Virus record (IMG/VR): IMGVR_UViG_2693429524_000010
Source: a virus
Lineage: Duplodnaviria; Heunggongvirae; Uroviricota; Caudoviricetes
Length of the DNA: 5,200 nucleotides
Strand: one strand, 5' to 3'
The position numbers were made by a program, and so were the translations under genes. Shown here in pieces: positions 1-5,200 of the stretch. The stretch's first letter is position 1; the number at the start of each line of letters is the position of its first letter. The notes below the pieces were generated by a model. The model saw only the letters and a list, made by a program, of their open reading frames with translations, had not been told where the DNA came from and ran no database searches.

Positions 1-72
1 ATCCTGACTTTCCAGAACCATACGAATCGCCCGCTGACGGACTTCGGGGGAAAAACGAGTATTTTTAGTCAT
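1..72 (-). CDS. IS3-family transposase OrfA, N-terminal 24 codons (partial, runs off the window)
   Basis: Reverse complement of 1-72 translates [24 protein letters not shown], which matches the N-terminus of IS629-group OrfA proteins as I remember them. A GAGG Shine-Dalgarno sits about 8 nt upstream of the ATG at 70-72. Confidence 0.8.
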
Positions 73-126
73 CCTGTTTACCTCTTTCTCAGGGAGTTTA
101 GTCTCCAGGATTTCCGGGGCGGTTCA
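1..126 (-). mobile_element. IS3-family insertion sequence (IS629/IS1203/IS3411-like), orfA-proximal terminus (IRL); element continues leftward out of the window
   Basis: Reverse complement of 73-126 reads TGAACCGCCCCGGAAATCCTGGAGACTAAACTCCCTGAGAAAGAGGTAAACAGG and is followed directly by the transposase ATG. The terminal 13-mer TGAACCGCCCCGG recurs at 5090-5102, consistent with imperfect terminal inverted repeats of one IS type. The family name is from memory of IS3-group sequences, not a database hit. Confidence 0.8.
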
Positions 127-127
127 A

Positions 128-874
128 CCAGCGTCCGTTGCAACGAAGGCTACGCATCTTTCATTTATAAAGGCCCTACTAAGAGCCGCAGAGCGTGAAT
201 GGAAAATGCTGGATAAGGCACCAATTATTAAAGTGCCTCAACCAAAGAATAAACGGATCCGCTGGCTGGAGCCCCATGAAGCACAAAGGCTGATTGATGA
301 ATGTCCGGAGCCATTAAAGTCTGTTGTTGAATTTGCACTGGCAACAGGCTTAAGACGCTCGAACATCATCAACCTTGAATGGCAACAAATAGACATGCAG
401 CGCCGGGTGGCATGGATAAACCCGGAAGAGAGTAAATCAAACCGCGCAATTGGCGTTGCGCTGAATGATACTGCATGTCGCGTTTTGAAAAAACAAATCG
501 GGAATCATCACCGTTGGGTATTTGTGTACAAGGAAAGCTGTACCAAACCAGACGGAACGAAAGCGCCAACAGTAAGGAAGATGCGGTATGACGCAAACAC
601 AGCCTGGAAAGCGGCGCTGAGACGGGCTGGTATTGATGATTTCAGATTTCACGACTTGAGACACACCTGGGCAAGTTGGCTGGTTCAAGCCGGAGTCCCG
701 TTGTCAGTGTTACAGGAAATGGGAGGCTGGGAGTCTATCGAAATGGTTCGTCGATATGCTCACCTTGCACCTAATCACCTTACCGAACACGCACGGCAAA
801 TAGACTCGATCCTGAACCCATCGGTCCCAAATTTGTCCCAATCAAAAAATAAGGAAGGTACTAATGATGTGTAA
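128..874 (+). pseudogene. Phage-type tyrosine recombinase (integrase), 3' fragment; 5' part removed by the IS insertion at 126
   Basis: ORF track 206-874 contains the tyrosine-recombinase catalytic region ([51 protein letters not shown] with R, HxxR and Y). The same frame stays open with no stop back to position 128, immediately next to the IS terminus ([30 protein letters not shown]...). The protein lacks the N-terminal arm-binding and core-binding region that a complete integrase has. Confidence 0.85.
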
Positions 875-1105
875 CTTATTGATTTAAATGGTGCGATAAT
901 AGGAACAATACACATAGGCGATAAGCTTTGTTTTTGTTGCCTTTTTTATTGTTCATTTTTTATAGATACCCCCAAAAGTACCCCCATATCTTTTTCCGCC
1001 CCTGAAATTTGGTTGTTATTCATACAGCATATCAGGCGGTAACGCTCTCCCTTTAACCCACTTATTGTATGATAGTGCTATCCCACAATAAGGAATCAGC
1101 CAGCC

Positions 1106-1465
1106 ATGAGAATGACCAGCCGCAAAAAAGAGATACTTAGCTACTTTGAACCGGATAACCTCGAATGGGTGACTGGTGAGATTGGTGCGCCGCCGTTCGA
1201 TGTGTCGGGTGTGGCCTACCTGCTTCATGGCATGGTGTCGTTCGATAAGCGTCACCAGCTCGAATCAACCCGGCGCACACTGGAAAGCATGGTTGCTGGT
1301 GGACTGCTTGAGCGGGTGACAGTGTATGAATCGCGCCAGATACGGCGCGGCGGTGAGACTAACGCAACGGTCGTGCGTTACGGTTTACCCGGTCATTGTG
1401 CTGTTATGCGCGATACTGGCGGCGCTGATAACGCAATATCAGGTGAATACATGCGGGTCAGTTAA
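1106..1465 (+). CDS. Hypothetical protein (119 aa), function unknown
   Basis: ORF with AGGA about 10 nt upstream of the ATG. GC-rich codon composition similar to neighbouring genes. Its 3' end overlaps the convergent gene 1458-2000 by 8 bp. No family recognised. Confidence 0.45.
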   Translation: MRMTSRKKEILSYFEPDNLEWVTGEIGAPPFDVSGVAYLLHGMVSFDKRHQLESTRRTLESMVAGGLLERVTVYESRQIRRGGETNATVVRYGLPGHCAVMRDTGGADNAISGEYMRVS

Positions 1466-2000
1466 TAGCCTGCAATCTGTCGTTGATGCGGCTCAGGTCG
1501 TAAACCCGGCGTTCAATATCCAGCATCAGGAAATTGTGGATCTCGGCCTGCTCAGGATTATCAGACTCTCTGGCCTGTAATAGCAATTCATTGTAACCAT
1601 GCAAGCCGCCTGAGTTTTCCGCCGGGGTGGTGCCTTTCCCACGCAGGCAGCTAATGGGCTGATTACTCGTATCGTGTGTTTGCTTCTCCAGCACAATGAC
1701 GCAATCCCACCAGTCGCCAAAGTCATACGTGTAAACCAGCTTGTCACCCTCATTCTGGAGCGCCGCCCATAGTGGCGTGATTGCCGCGTTACCCATGCTT
1801 TCATCCTCACCCCATACGCGATACTCGCTACCTGGATCACCTTTACGCCCTTTCTCGAACATATACAGGTGTTCGTCATTCCAGCCAAAAGCTAACTGGA
1901 TCACGGCATGAAGTTTACTAAAGGGGATTTGCTCTGGAACCAGCACACGCCGCCATATAGGTGGTTTGCTGTCTCGGATGGTTATCTTTAGCTGGTACAT
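1458..2000 (-). CDS. Plasmid pRiA4b ORF-3-like family protein (180 aa)
   Basis: The N-terminus MYQLKITIRDSKPPIWRRVLVPEQIPFSKLHAVIQLAFGWNDEHLYMFE and the downstream YTYDFGDWWD motif match what I remember of the pRiA4b ORF-3-like family (Pfam PF07929). AGGA lies about 6 nt upstream of the start on the minus strand. Confidence 0.7.
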   Translation of the reverse strand: MYQLKITIRDSKPPIWRRVLVPEQIPFSKLHAVIQLAFGWNDEHLYMFEKGRKGDPGSEYRVWGEDESMGNAAITPLWAALQNEGDKLVYTYDFGDWWDCVIVLEKQTHDTSNQPISCLRGKGTTPAENSGGLHGYNELLLQARESDNPEQAEIHNFLMLDIERRVYDLSRINDRLQAIN

Positions 2001-2120
2001 GCAAATCCTGAATAAATGCGAATCGGAAGGATAACGATACTGACGTACTCACAATTCTGTAAAGGTGAATAAAGGAAATTTGCTTAATACGCATAAGTTA
2101 CATGTGGAATAATCCCATAT

Positions 2121-2306
2121 CTACCTGCGCGGCGCTGGCTTCTTCCACTGGTAGGCAGGTGCTCGCATCATTTCGCGGAACCTGTCGCGCCGGGCTATAT
2201 CGGCATTAACTGATCGTTCTATCTCCCGTTGATCTGCCTGTGTAAGCTGGTGGCCTCCGTGCTCAAGTTTGGCGATGGTCAATAAGGCTATTTCGCGTGG
2301 TGTCAT
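2121..2306 (-). CDS. Small hypothetical protein (61 aa) with a basic C-terminus
   Basis: ORF with GAGGG about 8 nt upstream of the ATG on the minus strand. The C-terminal tail is lysine/arginine-rich (QWKKPAPRR). No family recognised. Confidence 0.4.
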   Translation of the reverse strand: MTPREIALLTIAKLEHGGHQLTQADQREIERSVNADIARRDRFREMMRAPAYQWKKPAPRR

Positions 2307-2577
2307 ACGTCATACCCTCTGGAAGGATGAAACACGCCCGGATTAAATTTCATTTTTCGCGGGTATAAAAAAACGATGGGGCGGGCAGTCCCGGATAGTC
2401 AGGCCTGTAGAGATTTGACTACCCCCTCCCCACTGGATTCAGGTTACTGCTATTCCGTTAAGCGATGCTTACGGGGATAGCTGCGTTGTGATTTTGACCA
2501 TTCAGGTCGCCGCTATTTCCTCACCGATTGGGTGCTACGCGTGCGCGTACTTGTCCCGAAATACCAGAAACCGCCAG

Positions 2578-2599
2578 CCAGAGGATGATTTCCCTCTGG
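2578..2599 (-). terminator. Candidate hairpin just downstream of the PerC-like stop codon (weak intrinsic terminator)
   Basis: CCAGAGG (2578-2584) and CCTCTGG (2593-2599) form a 7-bp inverted repeat with an 8-nt loop. It is followed on the minus strand by a moderately U-rich run (GGUUUCUGGUAUUUCGG). The stem is short and the U tract interrupted. Confidence 0.25.
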
Positions 2600-2603
2600 T
2601 GGT

Positions 2604-2885
2604 CTACCTTTGCCTCTTGCCGCCATTTAACCGGAAGGCGTTACCGTTCGGTTGCGCTATCCCCATGCGGTGTTGCGTTTCGGTAACAGCTTTATGCAGG
2701 TCGCCAAATTCCTCAACCTTCACGGGCGGGCGCTTCACGTTCTCCAGACACGTTTCACGGCGGCGCTTTATCCATTCCCGATCATCGTCCTCGGTGCATA
2801 ACAGCATGACTTCCATCCATCGTGCGGCAGCTCTCCGGTATAGCCCTTTTGACTCCAGCTCTTCAGCTTTCCTGTCCCTTATCAT
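2604..2885 (-). CDS. PerC-family transcriptional activator (PerC/Pch-like, 93 aa)
   Basis: The N-terminus MIRDRKAEELESKGLYRRAAARWMEVM resembles the conserved start of PerC and the EHEC Pch (PerC homologue) proteins, and the size is typical for the family. GAGAGG lies about 5 nt upstream of the ATG on the minus strand. Confidence 0.75.
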   Translation of the reverse strand: MIRDRKAEELESKGLYRRAAARWMEVMLLCTEDDDREWIKRRRETCLENVKRPPVKVEEFGDLHKAVTETQHRMGIAQPNGNAFRLNGGKRQR

Positions 2886-2921
2886 TTCTGCCTCTCAGAT
2901 TATATAGATAAGCAAAAAGGT

Positions 2922-2948
2922 GTTGGTTCAGTTGGTTCAGTTGGTTCA
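2922..2948 (+). repeat. Three perfect tandem copies of the 9-mer GTTGGTTCA
   Basis: Read directly: GTTGGTTCA at 2922-2930, 2931-2939 and 2940-2948, head to tail with no spacer. Confidence 0.95.
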
Positions 2949-2991
2949 ATTTGTAAAGAGCGTTGTTTTTATTGTGTTTTTTCTAAAATAT

Positions 2992-3021
2992 TGAACCAAC
3001 ATCAACTCATTTTGAACCAAC
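2992..3021 (-). repeat. Two further copies of the same 9-mer in inverted orientation (TGAACCAAC), 12 bp apart
   Basis: TGAACCAAC at 2992-3000 and 3013-3021 is the reverse complement of GTTGGTTCA, giving five copies of the 9-mer within 100 bp. Confidence 0.9.
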
Positions 3022-3220
3022 AAAAAGTGTCCGTGAACTAACACTCTGTCAAATAGTCACTACATATATTAACGGTGAAGACTAAATCCGCCAGCAAATA
3101 GCTTATATAGCACCGCTTTATGCCGCAGTTATGCTGGAACAGTAATCATTTCACAGAACCGCCTAACTACTATATGGCACCTGCTAAAAAGCACATCAGC
3201 CTAGTCAGTTGATCGGTGCA

Positions 3221-3249
3221 TGGATATCCTAACAATTCAACTATATAAC
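3221..3249 (+). promoter_or_regulatory. Candidate sigma-70-like promoter facing the downstream two-gene cassette
   Basis: TGGATA (3221-3226), a 17-bp spacer, then TATAAC (3244-3249) inside a TATATAA stretch. This is a by-eye match to TTGACA-N17-TATAAT and is only weakly supported. Confidence 0.2.
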
Positions 3250-3318
3250 GTGATCTCCCATGTCGATCTACTGTCATGCAATGATTAACAAACACATAGA
3301 CACATCTGCTTGGCGCAT

Positions 3319-3328
3319 TGATTAATCA
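3319..3328. promoter_or_regulatory. Perfect 10-bp palindrome TGATTAATCA, with a related half-site TGATTAA at 3282-3288; possible operator
   Basis: Read directly. It lies 45 bp upstream of the ATG at 3373, in the AT-rich leader of the cassette. Confidence 0.3.
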
Positions 3329-3372
3329 CTGATCATCCATCAGGATATGCGAACCACCGTCACCAGGTTAGG

Positions 3373-4458
3373 ATGATTCTCAAAAGCCACCTGTATTCAA
3401 TGCCTTTGATGGGTTTCATCCATAGTTATTTTCTCGTGACTGACATGGAGATTTTGATTTCAAGGTGTGCAAAAACTATCGCAGAGTACAATGGAGCTCA
3501 AATGACTGTGGCACCAAAAGATCAAAGTTTGAAATCTGTAAGGGTGGGCTTTTACACAAGCTCTGAGAATATTCGCACTAGTAACAAGGGGTTAACCGCA
3601 GAGGCCTTTAAAAATCTGTATGATCGGTGTTCTAAAGACTTCAAGATGACCCACTATGCAGACTTTGGTGAAAGAGAACTTAAAATTCATTTTCTAGACA
3701 TCTCACCCGAGGATGGCTCCTACTTCGGATTCATGTCTCGAAGAAGAAAAAGCGCAACACTGGCATATATTACAGATAAAGAGTGGGTGGAAGAGAAAAT
3801 CCCTCTAGCCGGGGCAAAGACTCTTTCAGAACGTACATACTTTATTTATTATCCTCAGACAGACATTCTAGTATTGTCTTTAAATCATTTAGGTCCACGC
3901 CATAGTGACTTAGCCTTCCTTCTTTTCAACTCCAGTGATCGCGGAGTCCCTGTTTCTTTTGAAGCCATTTGGAAAGAAGAAAGCATCAAAGAACTACTCG
4001 AAACTGGATCCAATCTAAGAAGCTGCGAGATTTCTGTGGCCATCCCAAGAAACTTCAATGCCGCACAGTATCAACTCGATGGAATGTTCGCGAATCAGAT
4101 GATTGAGATGATCAGAGGCACCAGTTCAAGCCACCTGACTATTTCGTTACGCGGACATTCTCCATTAAAAAGAAAAGCAAAGGGATGGCTTGAGGATGAC
4201 GTTAAAAAAAGCCTTAAGGAGATGCTAGAAAAGTTCCCTGGTGGTGATGGTCGTTTAACTTTTGAGAAAGCAAATGTTGTTGCTCAGGGCGATAAAAAGA
4301 AGAAAAGTCTTGTAGACGAAGTTCTTACGGTAAAGAAGATGGTGCCTATCCAAGCAGATGGGTATCCGACCGATACTGACGTTAAAAATGCTATGCTACA
4401 AGCAAAGAATGACAACCTTAGGTATCTAACCCAGTACTATTTGGTTAGTCAAACGTAA
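3373..4458 (+). CDS. Hypothetical soluble protein (361 aa as the longest ORF); candidate sensor component of a two-gene module
   Basis: Long uninterrupted ORF in about 40% GC DNA with no predicted membrane segments beyond the doubtful first 24 residues. Three possible starts: 3373 (AGG then TAGG upstream), 3445 (no clear RBS) or 3502 (GGAG 6 nt upstream, which I favour). Its stop is 12 nt before the next start. No family recognised from sequence. Confidence 0.7.
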   Translation: MILKSHLYSMPLMGFIHSYFLVTDMEILISRCAKTIAEYNGAQMTVAPKDQSLKSVRVGFYTSSENIRTSNKGLTAEAFKNLYDRCSKDFKMTHYADFGERELKIHFLDISPEDGSYFGFMSRRRKSATLAYITDKEWVEEKIPLAGAKTLSERTYFIYYPQTDILVLSLNHLGPRHSDLAFLLFNSSDRGVPVSFEAIWKEESIKELLETGSNLRSCEISVAIPRNFNAAQYQLDGMFANQMIEMIRGTSSSHLTISLRGHSPLKRKAKGWLEDDVKKSLKEMLEKFPGGDGRLTFEKANVVAQGDKKKKSLVDEVLTVKKMVPIQADGYPTDTDVKNAMLQAKNDNLRYLTQYYLVSQT

Positions 4459-4470
4459 CAGGAATACATT

Positions 4471-4908
4471 ATGAGTTCTCGGAAATTGTTTGCTGCCAAG
4501 TCATTGTTTGCTCTAGCTATGGCTATTGCTGGTGCCCATTTTTTACACGACCTAGATCACAATGCTGTCATTTCGGCTGCTGGTGCTCTTTCAACTATTT
4601 CTGGAGTTCTCTTTGGTTTTGTTTTGGCATCAGTCACCATGCTAAGTAGCTTTGATAGTTCAAAGGGAATTGTAGGCGCTCTAAAAAGTAACGGAGTACT
4701 AAAAGGCATTATTGAGGGGCTTTTTGATACAGGAACTACGCTGATCACAGCCTGCCTATTAGCAATGATCTCGATGTTTGCCCCTGTTGTCAGCAATCTG
4801 CCTCTGGATTATTATGCCCTGCTACTCGCAGGGGCATATTTGATTATATCAATGATAACTTTTTTCTTTAACTGGAAATCTTTATCTAAAATAATAAGTT
4901 ACATATGA
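4471..4908 (+). CDS. Small integral membrane protein (145 aa) with four predicted transmembrane helices; candidate effector
   Basis: Four hydrophobic stretches of about 20 residues each, at roughly residues 6-25, 36-60, 87-107 and 112-133, with an amphipathic loop between helices 2 and 3. AGGA lies 7 nt upstream of the ATG, and the gene starts 12 nt after the upstream stop, suggesting co-transcription. Confidence 0.75.
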   Translation: MSSRKLFAAKSLFALAMAIAGAHFLHDLDHNAVISAAGALSTISGVLFGFVLASVTMLSSFDSSKGIVGALKSNGVLKGIIEGLFDTGTTLITACLLAMISMFAPVVSNLPLDYYALLLAGAYLIISMITFFFNWKSLSKIISYI

Positions 4909-5028
4909 TAAATATTTCAAAATGAGTCCCCCTGCTACGGATAGTCCTTGGCTTAAAAAATACCGTCACCGCTGAATACCCACACAGTGCCCCCATCCAT
5001 TTAGTTGGCATAATGTATTCAACTGATT

Positions 5029-5048
5029 GAGGAATGGCTCCTCTTTTA
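5029..5048 (+). terminator. Weak candidate intrinsic terminator downstream of the cassette
   Basis: GAGGA (5029-5033), loop ATGGC, then TCCTC (5039-5043) followed by TTTTA. The stem is only 5 bp, so this is marginal. Confidence 0.2.
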
Positions 5049-5089
5049 CTACCAAACGGCCATCGCTGGCGCATTCATCCGCTGGTAGT

Positions 5090-5200
5090 TGAACCGCCCC
5101 GGGTTTCCTGGAGAGTGTTTTATCTGTGAACTCAGGCTGCCAGATCATCGTTTCCGATGGAAGCATAATAAGCTTTTTCTGCTTCTGCCGGAGGAGTATG
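5090..5200 (-). mobile_element. IS3-family insertion sequence (same type as at 1-126), orfB-proximal terminus (IRR); element continues rightward out of the window
   Basis: 5090-5134 reads TGAACCGCCCCGGGTTTCCTGGAGAGTGTTTTATCTGTGAACTCA. Its first 13 nt are identical to the inverted terminus at 114-126 and are followed by a similar TCCTGGAGA block, as expected for IRR versus IRL of one element. Confidence 0.75.
5132..5200 (-). CDS. IS3-family transposase OrfB, C-terminal 22 codons plus stop (partial, runs off the window)
   Basis: Reverse complement of 5135-5200 translates HTPPAEAEKAYYASIGNDDLAA, followed by a TGA stop at 5132-5134, just inside the terminal repeat. That placement is typical of IS3-family orfB; identity is inferred from position, not from a recognised motif. 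Confidence 0.55.
   Translation of the reverse strand, partial: HTPPAEAEKAYYASIGNDDLAA

Follow-up and report, generated by a model that had tools for sequence, protein, structure and literature searches.

Few relatives of the RexA/RexB module of phage lambda have been described; a 2026 paper counts only five RexAB-like systems. RexABpp of the Pseudomonas putida prophage P1, gp30/gp31 of mycobacteriophage Sbash and gp44/gp43 of CarolAnn are experimentally defensive (PMC12894663; PMC6426596). The Sbash genes form a published Rex-like defence pair in which gp31 is a four-transmembrane protein, and a DUF4747 motif has been reported in both RexA and Sbash gp30 (PMC6426596). Sucellos (sclA/sclB), from the superintegron of Vibrio cholerae, has a predicted RexAB-like structure that is unmatched by the Pfam Rex domains; SclB is a predicted membrane pore, both genes are required for defence, the action is abortive, and homologs are found mostly in prophages, often those of Salmonella (bioRxiv 10.1101/2024.07.02.601686). 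According to DefenseFinder, Sucellos is carried by almost every S. Enteritidis genome and by a P4-like satellite of Enterobacter. Here we describe a 5,200-nucleotide stretch of DNA, IMG/VR virus record IMGVR_UViG_2693429524_000010, which we call the window and whose positions are counted from its first letter. It is Escherichia coli DNA and carries two adjacent genes, orf318 and orf145, within a tract of low guanine-plus-cytosine (GC) content. We consider it likely, at a probability of roughly 65%, that this tract is mainly an accessory cassette of ~2.1 kb in the variable slot of a satellite island that is integrated at the tRNA-Thr gene thrW and resembles P4 and the phage-inducible chromosomal islands (PICIs), and that the cassette encodes an abortive-infection module of the lambda RexA/RexB type.

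The low-GC tract and the variable slot of the thrW island

A shift in composition had been noted in the first-pass annotation of the window, which counted 60-nucleotide blocks by hand, put the right-hand part (2900-4910) at about 40-43% GC against about 50-55% for the integrase and the left-hand genes, and took the difference as a sign that the right-hand module was acquired separately. The block counts are reproduced (51.7% at 601-660, 40.0% at 3601-3660 and 43.3% at 4501-4560). Over the same ranges, 128-2900 holds 49.7% GC and 2900-4910 holds 40.2% (two-proportion test, z = 6.2); the drop of about nine percentage points is thus real and significant, although the left-hand mean is 49.7% and not 50-55%. 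Exact counts on either side of the PerC gene start give 49.7% for 129-2885 and 40.8% for 2886-5089. In a 300-bp sliding window, GC lies at 0.44-0.56 across most of 1100-2900 and falls to 0.37-0.44 between about 2800 and 5000, and the low-GC tract extends to about 5000-5089, beyond the end at 4910 first given to it. The maximum-likelihood single change-point between the two insertion sequence (IS) ends of the window falls at 2879, with a log-likelihood gain of 20.2 that exceeds the gain in every one of 500 shuffles of 50-bp blocks (mean 4.2, maximum 13.2).

Codon usage and tetranucleotide usage both change as well. GC at the third codon position (GC3) is 0.47-0.63 in the five left-hand genes, 0.39 in orf318 and 0.34 in orf145. 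Since GC3 is low in both right-hand genes, the shift is more than an amino-acid effect. Normalised tetranucleotide usage correlates with that of the host flanks at 0.66 for the island backbone and at 0.34 for the cassette. The left side itself is uneven, with 47.7% GC in the integrase gene and 38 and 35% in the intergenic stretches 875-1105 and 2001-2120, respectively. The change-point at 2879 coincides with the 5' end of the PerC gene, the last of the high-GC genes. Acquired DNA does not begin at 2900, as had been proposed: the GC boundary lies near 2880 and the alignment breakpoint at 3023-3045, which illustrates that a GC change-point need not equal a recombination breakpoint. A compositional shift of this kind is a textbook signature of exchanged cargo and is unsurprising by itself.

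Separate acquisition of the right-hand module is borne out by comparison with other genomes. We surveyed 5426 complete E. coli genomes, scoring the left module (1100-2890, with orf119, pRiA4b-ORF3, orf61 and PerC) at a coverage of at least 80%. It is present in 328 of them, whereas the right module (3400-4910) occurs in 42, always at an identity of at least 99%; about 290 genomes carry the flanking backbone with other DNA in place of the cassette. In strains CP53, O111:H8 8234 and YJ6, whose islands lack the right module, the island matches the window over 871-3022 or 871-3044 and then diverges, and no homology to the sibling loci L003, L004 and L005 is found beyond 3023/3045. Homology between these siblings and an intact island that does bear the cassette (AMSCJX02, locus L002) restarts at L002 16330/16366, equivalent to window position 5201/5237 and hence just past the IS junction. 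In the window, the variable-slot cargo occupies 3045-5089 (plus strand), and intact islands hold ~110-150 bp more of it beyond the IS junction. By alignment, the acquired unit therefore extends from about 3045 to about 5200, ending just beyond the last position of the window.

The slot contains five different inserts between the same conserved flanks across strains. One holds three small hypothetical genes (893 bp, 45.4% GC), another a helix-turn-helix (HTH) regulator with hypothetical genes (1193 bp, 50.0% GC), a third an annotated Abi family protein with a hypothetical gene (1902 bp, 42.7% GC) and a fourth an ImmA/IrrE peptidase with hypothetical genes (1711 bp, 42.4% GC). The fifth is the present cassette, found in 41 genomes (~2.1 kb, 41.4% GC in the intact copy of L002). 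Five inserts between identical flanks argue against loss of the cassette by deletion from one ancestral state.

Within the cassette, both genes lie on the plus strand. The upstream region 3317-3501, which travels with the pair, presumably holds the promoter and the ribosome-binding site, with GGAG 6 nt before the ATG at 3502. It is followed by orf318 (3502-4458), which encodes a RexA-like protein of 318 amino acids, a divergent relative of the DUF6731 family (phrog_7651; 41.5% GC). After a gap of 12 bp, orf145 (4471-4908) encodes a RexB-like membrane protein of 145 amino acids with four predicted transmembrane helices (phrog_8552; 40.0% GC). Both PHROGs are function-unknown groups, and Pfam and NCBIfam scans of the two proteins returned only a sub-threshold Pfam match to TubZ-like_C (expectation value, E, 0.022). 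A longer first open reading frame (ORF) of 361 amino acids, starting at 3373, was rejected, as the homologs measure 309-318 amino acids and RefSeq annotates 318. The non-coding tail of the cassette (4909-5089, plus strand) has a single terminator-like hairpin (5029-5043) with a T run behind it, a consensus match only; in consensus scans of 2850-5100, promoter and terminator sites were no more numerous than in shuffles.

The cassette pair and its relatives

The likeness of orf318 to RexA became apparent at the level of structure. Its AlphaFold2 model (mean pLDDT, the predicted local distance difference test, 77) was compared by Foldseek against ~350,000 PDB chains, and the best match was lambda RexA (8twq_B, E 7.5e-6, probability 1.0). 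The second match was RdgC (2owl), and the authors of the RexA structure reported an unexpected homology between RexA and RdgC (PMC11077077). The order of strands and helices in orf318 is compatible with RexA, that is, with a split globular domain built round a sheet of seven strands and a central dimerisation domain that has four strands and helices. Alignment by hhalign of a broad DUF6731 profile with a RexA profile yielded E 2e-4, a probability of 46% and 220 collinear columns. On the basis of the model, orf318 most likely is a cytoplasmic protein with a RexA-like fold.

The second protein, orf145, is modelled by AlphaFold2 as four long helices. Its hydropathy peaks (6-24, 40-58, 89-107 and 115-133) run parallel to those of the 144-residue lambda RexB (8-26, 48-66, 84-102 and 116-134). 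In the structure database BFVD, its best match is a protein of the uncultured phage ctylc9, which is also the source of the best BFVD match of orf318, encoded next to it. The second-best match is a 165-residue protein of mycobacteriophage Sbash, the identity of which as gp31 could not be confirmed. Lambda RexA and RexB were absent from the BFVD matches of both models, which consisted of uncharacterised phage proteins and the one Sbash protein. From model and topology, orf145 most likely is an inner-membrane protein that resembles RexB in its length, gene position and membrane topology. The only stretch that hhalign paired between the partner proteins and RexB is the second transmembrane helix (orf145 29-61, RexB 37-67), with the family-invariant His30 opposite RexB His38, at a non-significant E of 0.14. 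Distant partner proteins also have a common 'KLxKNxRRTGH' loop that resembles 'RRLAKIREYGY' of RexB.

Homologs of orf318 were found in Klebsiella, Pantoea, Cronobacter, Citrobacter, Rahnella, Yersinia, Salmonella, Xenorhabdus, Morganellaceae and Vibrio. PF20505 (DUF6731) is found in the homologs of 43-49% identity and matches 67 of 76 full-length relatives retrieved with the family profile; orf318 itself gave no PF20505 match at E up to 10. The Salmonella homolog, 61% identical to orf318, is present on at least 1000 contigs under the UniRef name 'DUF4747 family protein'. An exhaustive profile search delivered 132 clusters at 50% identity, whose members come from Enterobacterales, Vibrio, Aeromonas, Shewanella, Pseudoalteromonas, a purple sulfur bacterium and high-GC metagenomic phages; a profile scan of genome contigs with the narrow family alignment found two loci only. 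At each of the loci inspected, a partner gene for 143-150 amino acids with four hydrophobic segments begins -1 to +21 bp after the DUF6731-type gene, and the partner proteins are homologous across the family at 19-92% identity. The pairing also holds for distant DUF6731 genes (L028, L029).

The pair is found in a variety of mobile elements. In lambdoid prophages it lies beside Q, between Q and the lysis genes (L006; orf54/orf53 of phage cdtI), in Rahnella (L008) at a prophage end beside dinI, and in Salmonella (L025) at a prophage end beside dinI and pepN, which we take to be the Gifsy-2 site. It further occurs beside the integrase of a PM2-like prophage in Vibrio (L011), in a related satellite of Klebsiella (L022) and in a metagenomic phage beside a Cro-like gene (L027). 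In the Salmonella (L025 6663-8406) and Rahnella (L008 7350-9407) loci, the RexAB-like pair stands directly downstream of the dinI-family genes. The Klebsiella copy is located in a related island that shares DNA with the window only over 3317-4904, at 82% identity. Thus, the travelling unit consists of ~185 bp of upstream DNA and the two genes. In phages and satellites of Enterobacterales and Vibrio, the pair has 33-41% GC compared to 45-53% in its surroundings. Judged from these comparisons, the pair is a self-contained two-gene mobile unit that moves among temperate phages and satellites and has retained its adenine-thymine-rich (AT-rich) composition in the contexts sampled.

In some Klebsiella contigs (L021 and L023, in contrast to L022 and L024), the partner gene is not called and a 72-residue ORF on the opposite strand is listed instead, although the DNA of L021 and L023 still aligns across the full pair. 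The gene of the membrane protein may thus have been inactivated there.

A wider conclusion is possible but doubtful: DUF6731 and its four-transmembrane partner of 143-150 amino acids might together form a broad RexAB-type sensor/pore family of at least 130 clusters at 50% identity, missed by annotation, by the Pfam RexA and RexB models and by PADLOC, maybe distinct from Sucellos, and carried as an AT-rich moron by lambdoid phages, PM2-like prophages and satellites. The modest interest of the cassette lies in linking the uncharacterised DUF6731 and a conserved membrane partner to the RexA/RexB architecture. If this link is true, an abortive-infection annotation could be given to many 'hypothetical' pairs that Salmonella, E. 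coli, Klebsiella and Vibrio carry in their prophages and satellites, and the slot of the thrW island would be a handy natural test bed for swappable defence cargo.

Proposed abortive infection and its rival explanations

Several results weigh against a RexA/RexB-type defence module. Globally, the orf318 model superimposes poorly on 8twq, with TM-scores (template modelling scores) of 0.34-0.38 and a root-mean-square deviation of 17 Å. A different domain orientation in the model could account for these low values; the two RexA domains have been argued to swing relative to each other (PMC11077077). At the sequence level, the narrow profile of close homologs gave a non-significant E of 0.057 against the RexA profile in hhalign and was non-significant against the single sequence of lambda RexA, too. 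Neither cassette protein matched Pfam RexA (PF15969) or RexB (PF15968) at E up to 10, while lambda RexA, as a control, scores 1e-97 on the former. Hidden Markov model searches of the PDB sequences with narrow and broad profiles did not retrieve RexA, the broad one producing weak eIF2-alpha noise. For orf145, confidence in the model is moderate (pLDDT 69), its BFVD matches have weak E-values (0.03-0.05), the hhalign comparison of the partner profile with RexB was non-significant (E 0.14), and BLASTP against RexB found nothing. None of the six window proteins matched PADLOC-DB 2.0.0 (2023 models) at E up to 1. In the searched literature we found no mention of DUF6731 and no functional data for the family. 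No repressor gene adjoins the cassette in the window or in the sibling loci, where its neighbours are perC and the iterons, Q, or prophage ends. Finally, AT-richness is not universal, as the pair of a distant high-GC metagenomic member (L028) has 65% GC between flanks of 68%.

From fold, gene pairing and context we nevertheless infer a defence function. The expectation that the right-hand module is defence cargo inserted into a pre-existing element thus held in part: the cargo is exchanged and defence-like, and its pair resembles RexA/RexB, while the putative defence function is suggested by fold, pairing and context and PADLOC gave no match. A mechanism can be envisioned by analogy with lambda RexAB, P. 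putida RexABpp (PMC12894663) and the actinophage pairs. The 318-residue protein, as a dimeric DNA-clamp-like sensor, would recognise a sign of infection, which might be a phage protein or an intermediate of replication or recombination. The sensor would then activate an oligomeric four-helix membrane protein, which in turn might depolarise or permeabilise the membrane, leading to growth stop and an aborted infection. Carried by a satellite, such a module would guard both the host and the island from competing phages.

One might argue that the cassette was acquired horizontally and yet has a main role other than abortive infection. In this case the RexA-like protein could tune lysogeny and induction, or satellite or prophage replication, as lambda RexA does independently of RexB, or the membrane protein could serve in superinfection exclusion, in a block of injection or as a sequestering partner, as in Butters gp30/gp31, a pair with reversed protein roles (PMC12894663). 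The cassette adjoins iteron-like repeats in the E. coli and Klebsiella islands, and in Klebsiella an Imm_superinfect gene lies next to it, both of which would fit a regulatory or excluding role. However, the pair sits in unrelated accessory sites (beside Q, at prophage ends, beside an integrase, in satellite slots), which marks it as a portable moron and not as a core regulator. In addition, the same slot carries an annotated Abi family protein in other strains, and of the five Rex-like systems described so far, four have two components and act in abortive infection or exclusion (PMC12894663). We therefore regard a regulatory or purely excluding role as unlikely.

An addiction module would be a very improbable alternative to abortive infection. 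Here, the membrane protein would act as toxin and the cytoplasmic protein as its neutraliser, in the manner of a toxin-antitoxin system that stabilises the island instead of defending against phages. A small four-helix membrane protein with a soluble protein encoded upstream does fit a membrane toxin with its controller, overexpression of RexA renders RexB toxic in lambda and in P. putida (PMC12894663), and Panacea/SocA-type antitoxin domains occur in other slots of related islands. But with 318 amino acids and a DNA-clamp fold like that of RexA and RdgC, the soluble partner is unlike a small antitoxin; PADLOC, Pfam and NCBIfam gave no toxin-antitoxin match, and the membrane-protein gene is uncalled in some Klebsiella contigs (L021, L023) that still have the DNA. 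Scarcely tenable is the view that the GC drop reflects local functional constraint, that is, AT-rich promoter DNA and a membrane protein with a high content of Phe, Ile and Leu, and not foreign origin. It is true that 2886-3044 is conserved AT-rich backbone DNA, that intergenic regions of the backbone also reach 35-38% GC, and that hydrophobic proteins use T-rich codons. Yet GC is low at synonymous third positions too (0.39 and 0.34) and the gene of the soluble 318-residue protein is equally AT-rich; the slot comparison, with ~290 backbone-carrying genomes that hold other DNA in place of the cassette, largely refutes this explanation. Thus, a horizontally acquired RexA/RexB-type abortive-infection cassette remains our preferred interpretation.

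The island, its neighbours and the known systems

The intact island measures ~21 kb and comprises, from thrW onwards, its own integrase, an AlpA-like HTH protein, AntA/B, Ash, a TOPRIM/DUF927 primase, P22-like ejection proteins, the variable slot, PerC, orf61, pRiA4b-ORF3, orf119 and the distal attachment (att) core. The window covers the distal part of this backbone. The gene orf119 (1106-1465, plus strand, 54.2% GC) encodes a hypothetical protein present in all sibling islands, for which family scans gave no match. It converges with the gene of a pRiA4b ORF-3 family protein (1458-2000, minus strand; PF07929, E 1e-42; 51.0% GC), and the 3' ends of the two overlap by 8 bp (1458-1465); the gene pair is conserved in 328 genomes. 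Next are orf61, a small gene annotated in sibling islands (2121-2306, minus strand; phrog_7271, E 2e-6; 55.9% GC), and the gene of a PerC-family transcriptional activator (2604-2885, minus strand; PF06069, E 4e-30; phrog_994; 54.6% GC).

Variability is not restricted to the slot of the cassette. On the stretch from the att core or integrase to orf119, just left of the equivalent of window position 871, there is a second variable slot (L002 9387-11707; L004 4752-6460). In one strain it contains hypothetical genes for 543 and 198 amino acids and in another a cytosine methyltransferase and an HNH endonuclease, both inserts at 42-44% GC. Some strains carry an extra insert with a Panacea/SocA-domain protein within the left module (equivalent to 1100-2890), which would represent a third cargo site. 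P22-type DNA-ejection (injection) genes are situated beside the cargo slot (L001 17880-23048; L002 17238-20692; L003 10777-14348), an unusual combination with P4/PICI-like replication genes.

Between the PerC gene and the cassette, the stretch 2886-3044 is AT-rich (~37-39% GC), but it is conserved backbone outside the cassette, sharing 98-99.7% identity with cassette-free islands up to 3022 or 3044. It contains iteron-like repeats, namely three direct copies of GTTGGTTCA at 2922-2954 with 9-bp spacing and, at 2990-3022, two copies of TTGAACCAAC that are inverted. The repeat set occurs a second time, in inverted orientation, immediately 3' of the TOPRIM/DUF927 primase gene (L002 21349-21435), and this position beside the primase gene suggests that the repeats are replication iterons. 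The repeat motif also adjoins the primase of Klebsiella islands (L022 7810-7851 and 8056-8089). Taken by sequence conservation, 2886-3044 is island backbone, probably regulatory or iteron DNA, and not acquired DNA. The location of the cassette beside putative replication iterons of a satellite hints that the pair may read phage or satellite replication intermediates.

Both ends of the window consist of IS1203/IS629 (IS3 family). The left end (1-129, minus strand), which includes the start of the transposase gene, is 99.2% identical to L004 4180-4309, where an 'IS3-like element IS1203 family transposase' is annotated, and the end of a second copy (5090-5200, minus strand) is 100% identical to L004 2996-3106. 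They are opposite ends of the element in the same orientation. The second copy sits within the cassette tail, and the match to intact islands ends at 5094. Hence the segment of 4.96 kb between them is flanked by same-orientation IS1203/IS629 ends in a layout like that of a composite transposon. This exact IS-bracketed arrangement is absent from the complete E. coli RefSeq genomes, where the best coverage is 84%.

The integrase of the window requires a separate comment, as it had been taken for part of the pre-existing element that received the cassette. Its gene (130-874, plus strand; PF00589, E 1e-47; 47.7% GC) is represented by the 3' two-thirds of a tyrosine integrase gene, the 5' part having been lost to the IS; the frame is open from the IS junction, with a listed ORF at 206-874. 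It is 99.9% identical to an integrase that lies at the end of a lambdoid prophage and abuts thrW in strain SF-468. The integrase stop codon is followed at 889-904 by an att core that corresponds to the 3' end of thrW, TGGTGC-GATAATAGGA (16 of 17 bases, with a 1-bp deletion). This core was recognised by comparing the site with thrW of L019 and of L020 and with the core that is duplicated in L002; a tRNA gene search of the window found none, and the 16-nt thrW remnant was detected by direct comparison. Homology to integrase-less islands begins at 871, and in intact copies of the island its own integrase lies ~17 kb away, beside thrW. Because the att core separates the integrase from the island, the integrase belongs to a neighbouring tandem element: on this comparison it is part of a lambdoid element and not of the cassette-bearing island, and thrW carries a tandem integration of two distinct mobile elements. 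An integrase nearby thus need not belong to the element under discussion. An integron-cassette reading was dismissed as well, since the enzyme is a tyrosine recombinase of the phage type, encoded at an att site of a tRNA gene, and not IntI; no attC search was made.

How does the locus relate to described systems? Rousset et al. and Fillol-Salom et al. are said to have reported defence hotspots in P4-like satellites and PICIs in 2022. The thrW island shares with these hotspots the conserved flanks and the swappable, mostly AT-rich cargo, including an annotated Abi family protein, as well as the primase, the AlpA-like HTH protein, Ash and the integrase at a tRNA gene; its two repeat sets resemble the ori/crr pair of P4. 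It differs by its P22-like DNA-ejection genes and the PerC regulator.

The cassette itself resembles lambda RexAB in many ways. In both, the gene of a soluble protein comes first and that of a four-transmembrane protein of ~145 amino acids second, with a gap of 12 bp here and of 15 bp in lambda. The first protein agrees in its predicted fold and the second in hydropathy and length, carriage by temperate mobile elements is common to both, and so does GC content (40-42% here; 40.2% in lambda rexA and 42.5% in rexB, likewise within a richer genome). However, there is neither significant sequence similarity nor a match to Pfam RexA or RexB, and the first protein of the cassette is longer by 39 residues. 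In addition, lambda rexAB stands beside a cI-type repressor, whereas the pair described here is found in a satellite slot, beside Q or at prophage ends.

With P. putida RexABpp (PMC12894663) and the Sbash gp30/gp31 and CarolAnn gp44/gp43 pairs (PMC6426596), the cassette has in common that recognition relies mainly on remote homology or structure, that the partner has four transmembrane segments and that the pairs are encoded by prophages. These pairs belong to other sequence families and hosts, and the RexA-like proteins of Sbash and CarolAnn comprise 370-372 amino acids compared to 318 here. Sucellos was compared by description, which suits the cassette family well: like Sucellos, this family has an abundant member in Salmonella prophages and members in Vibrio, while no V. 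cholerae protein was among the 30 family clusters inspected. Taken together, the cassette probably represents either a member of the Sucellos family or a further RexAB-type family.

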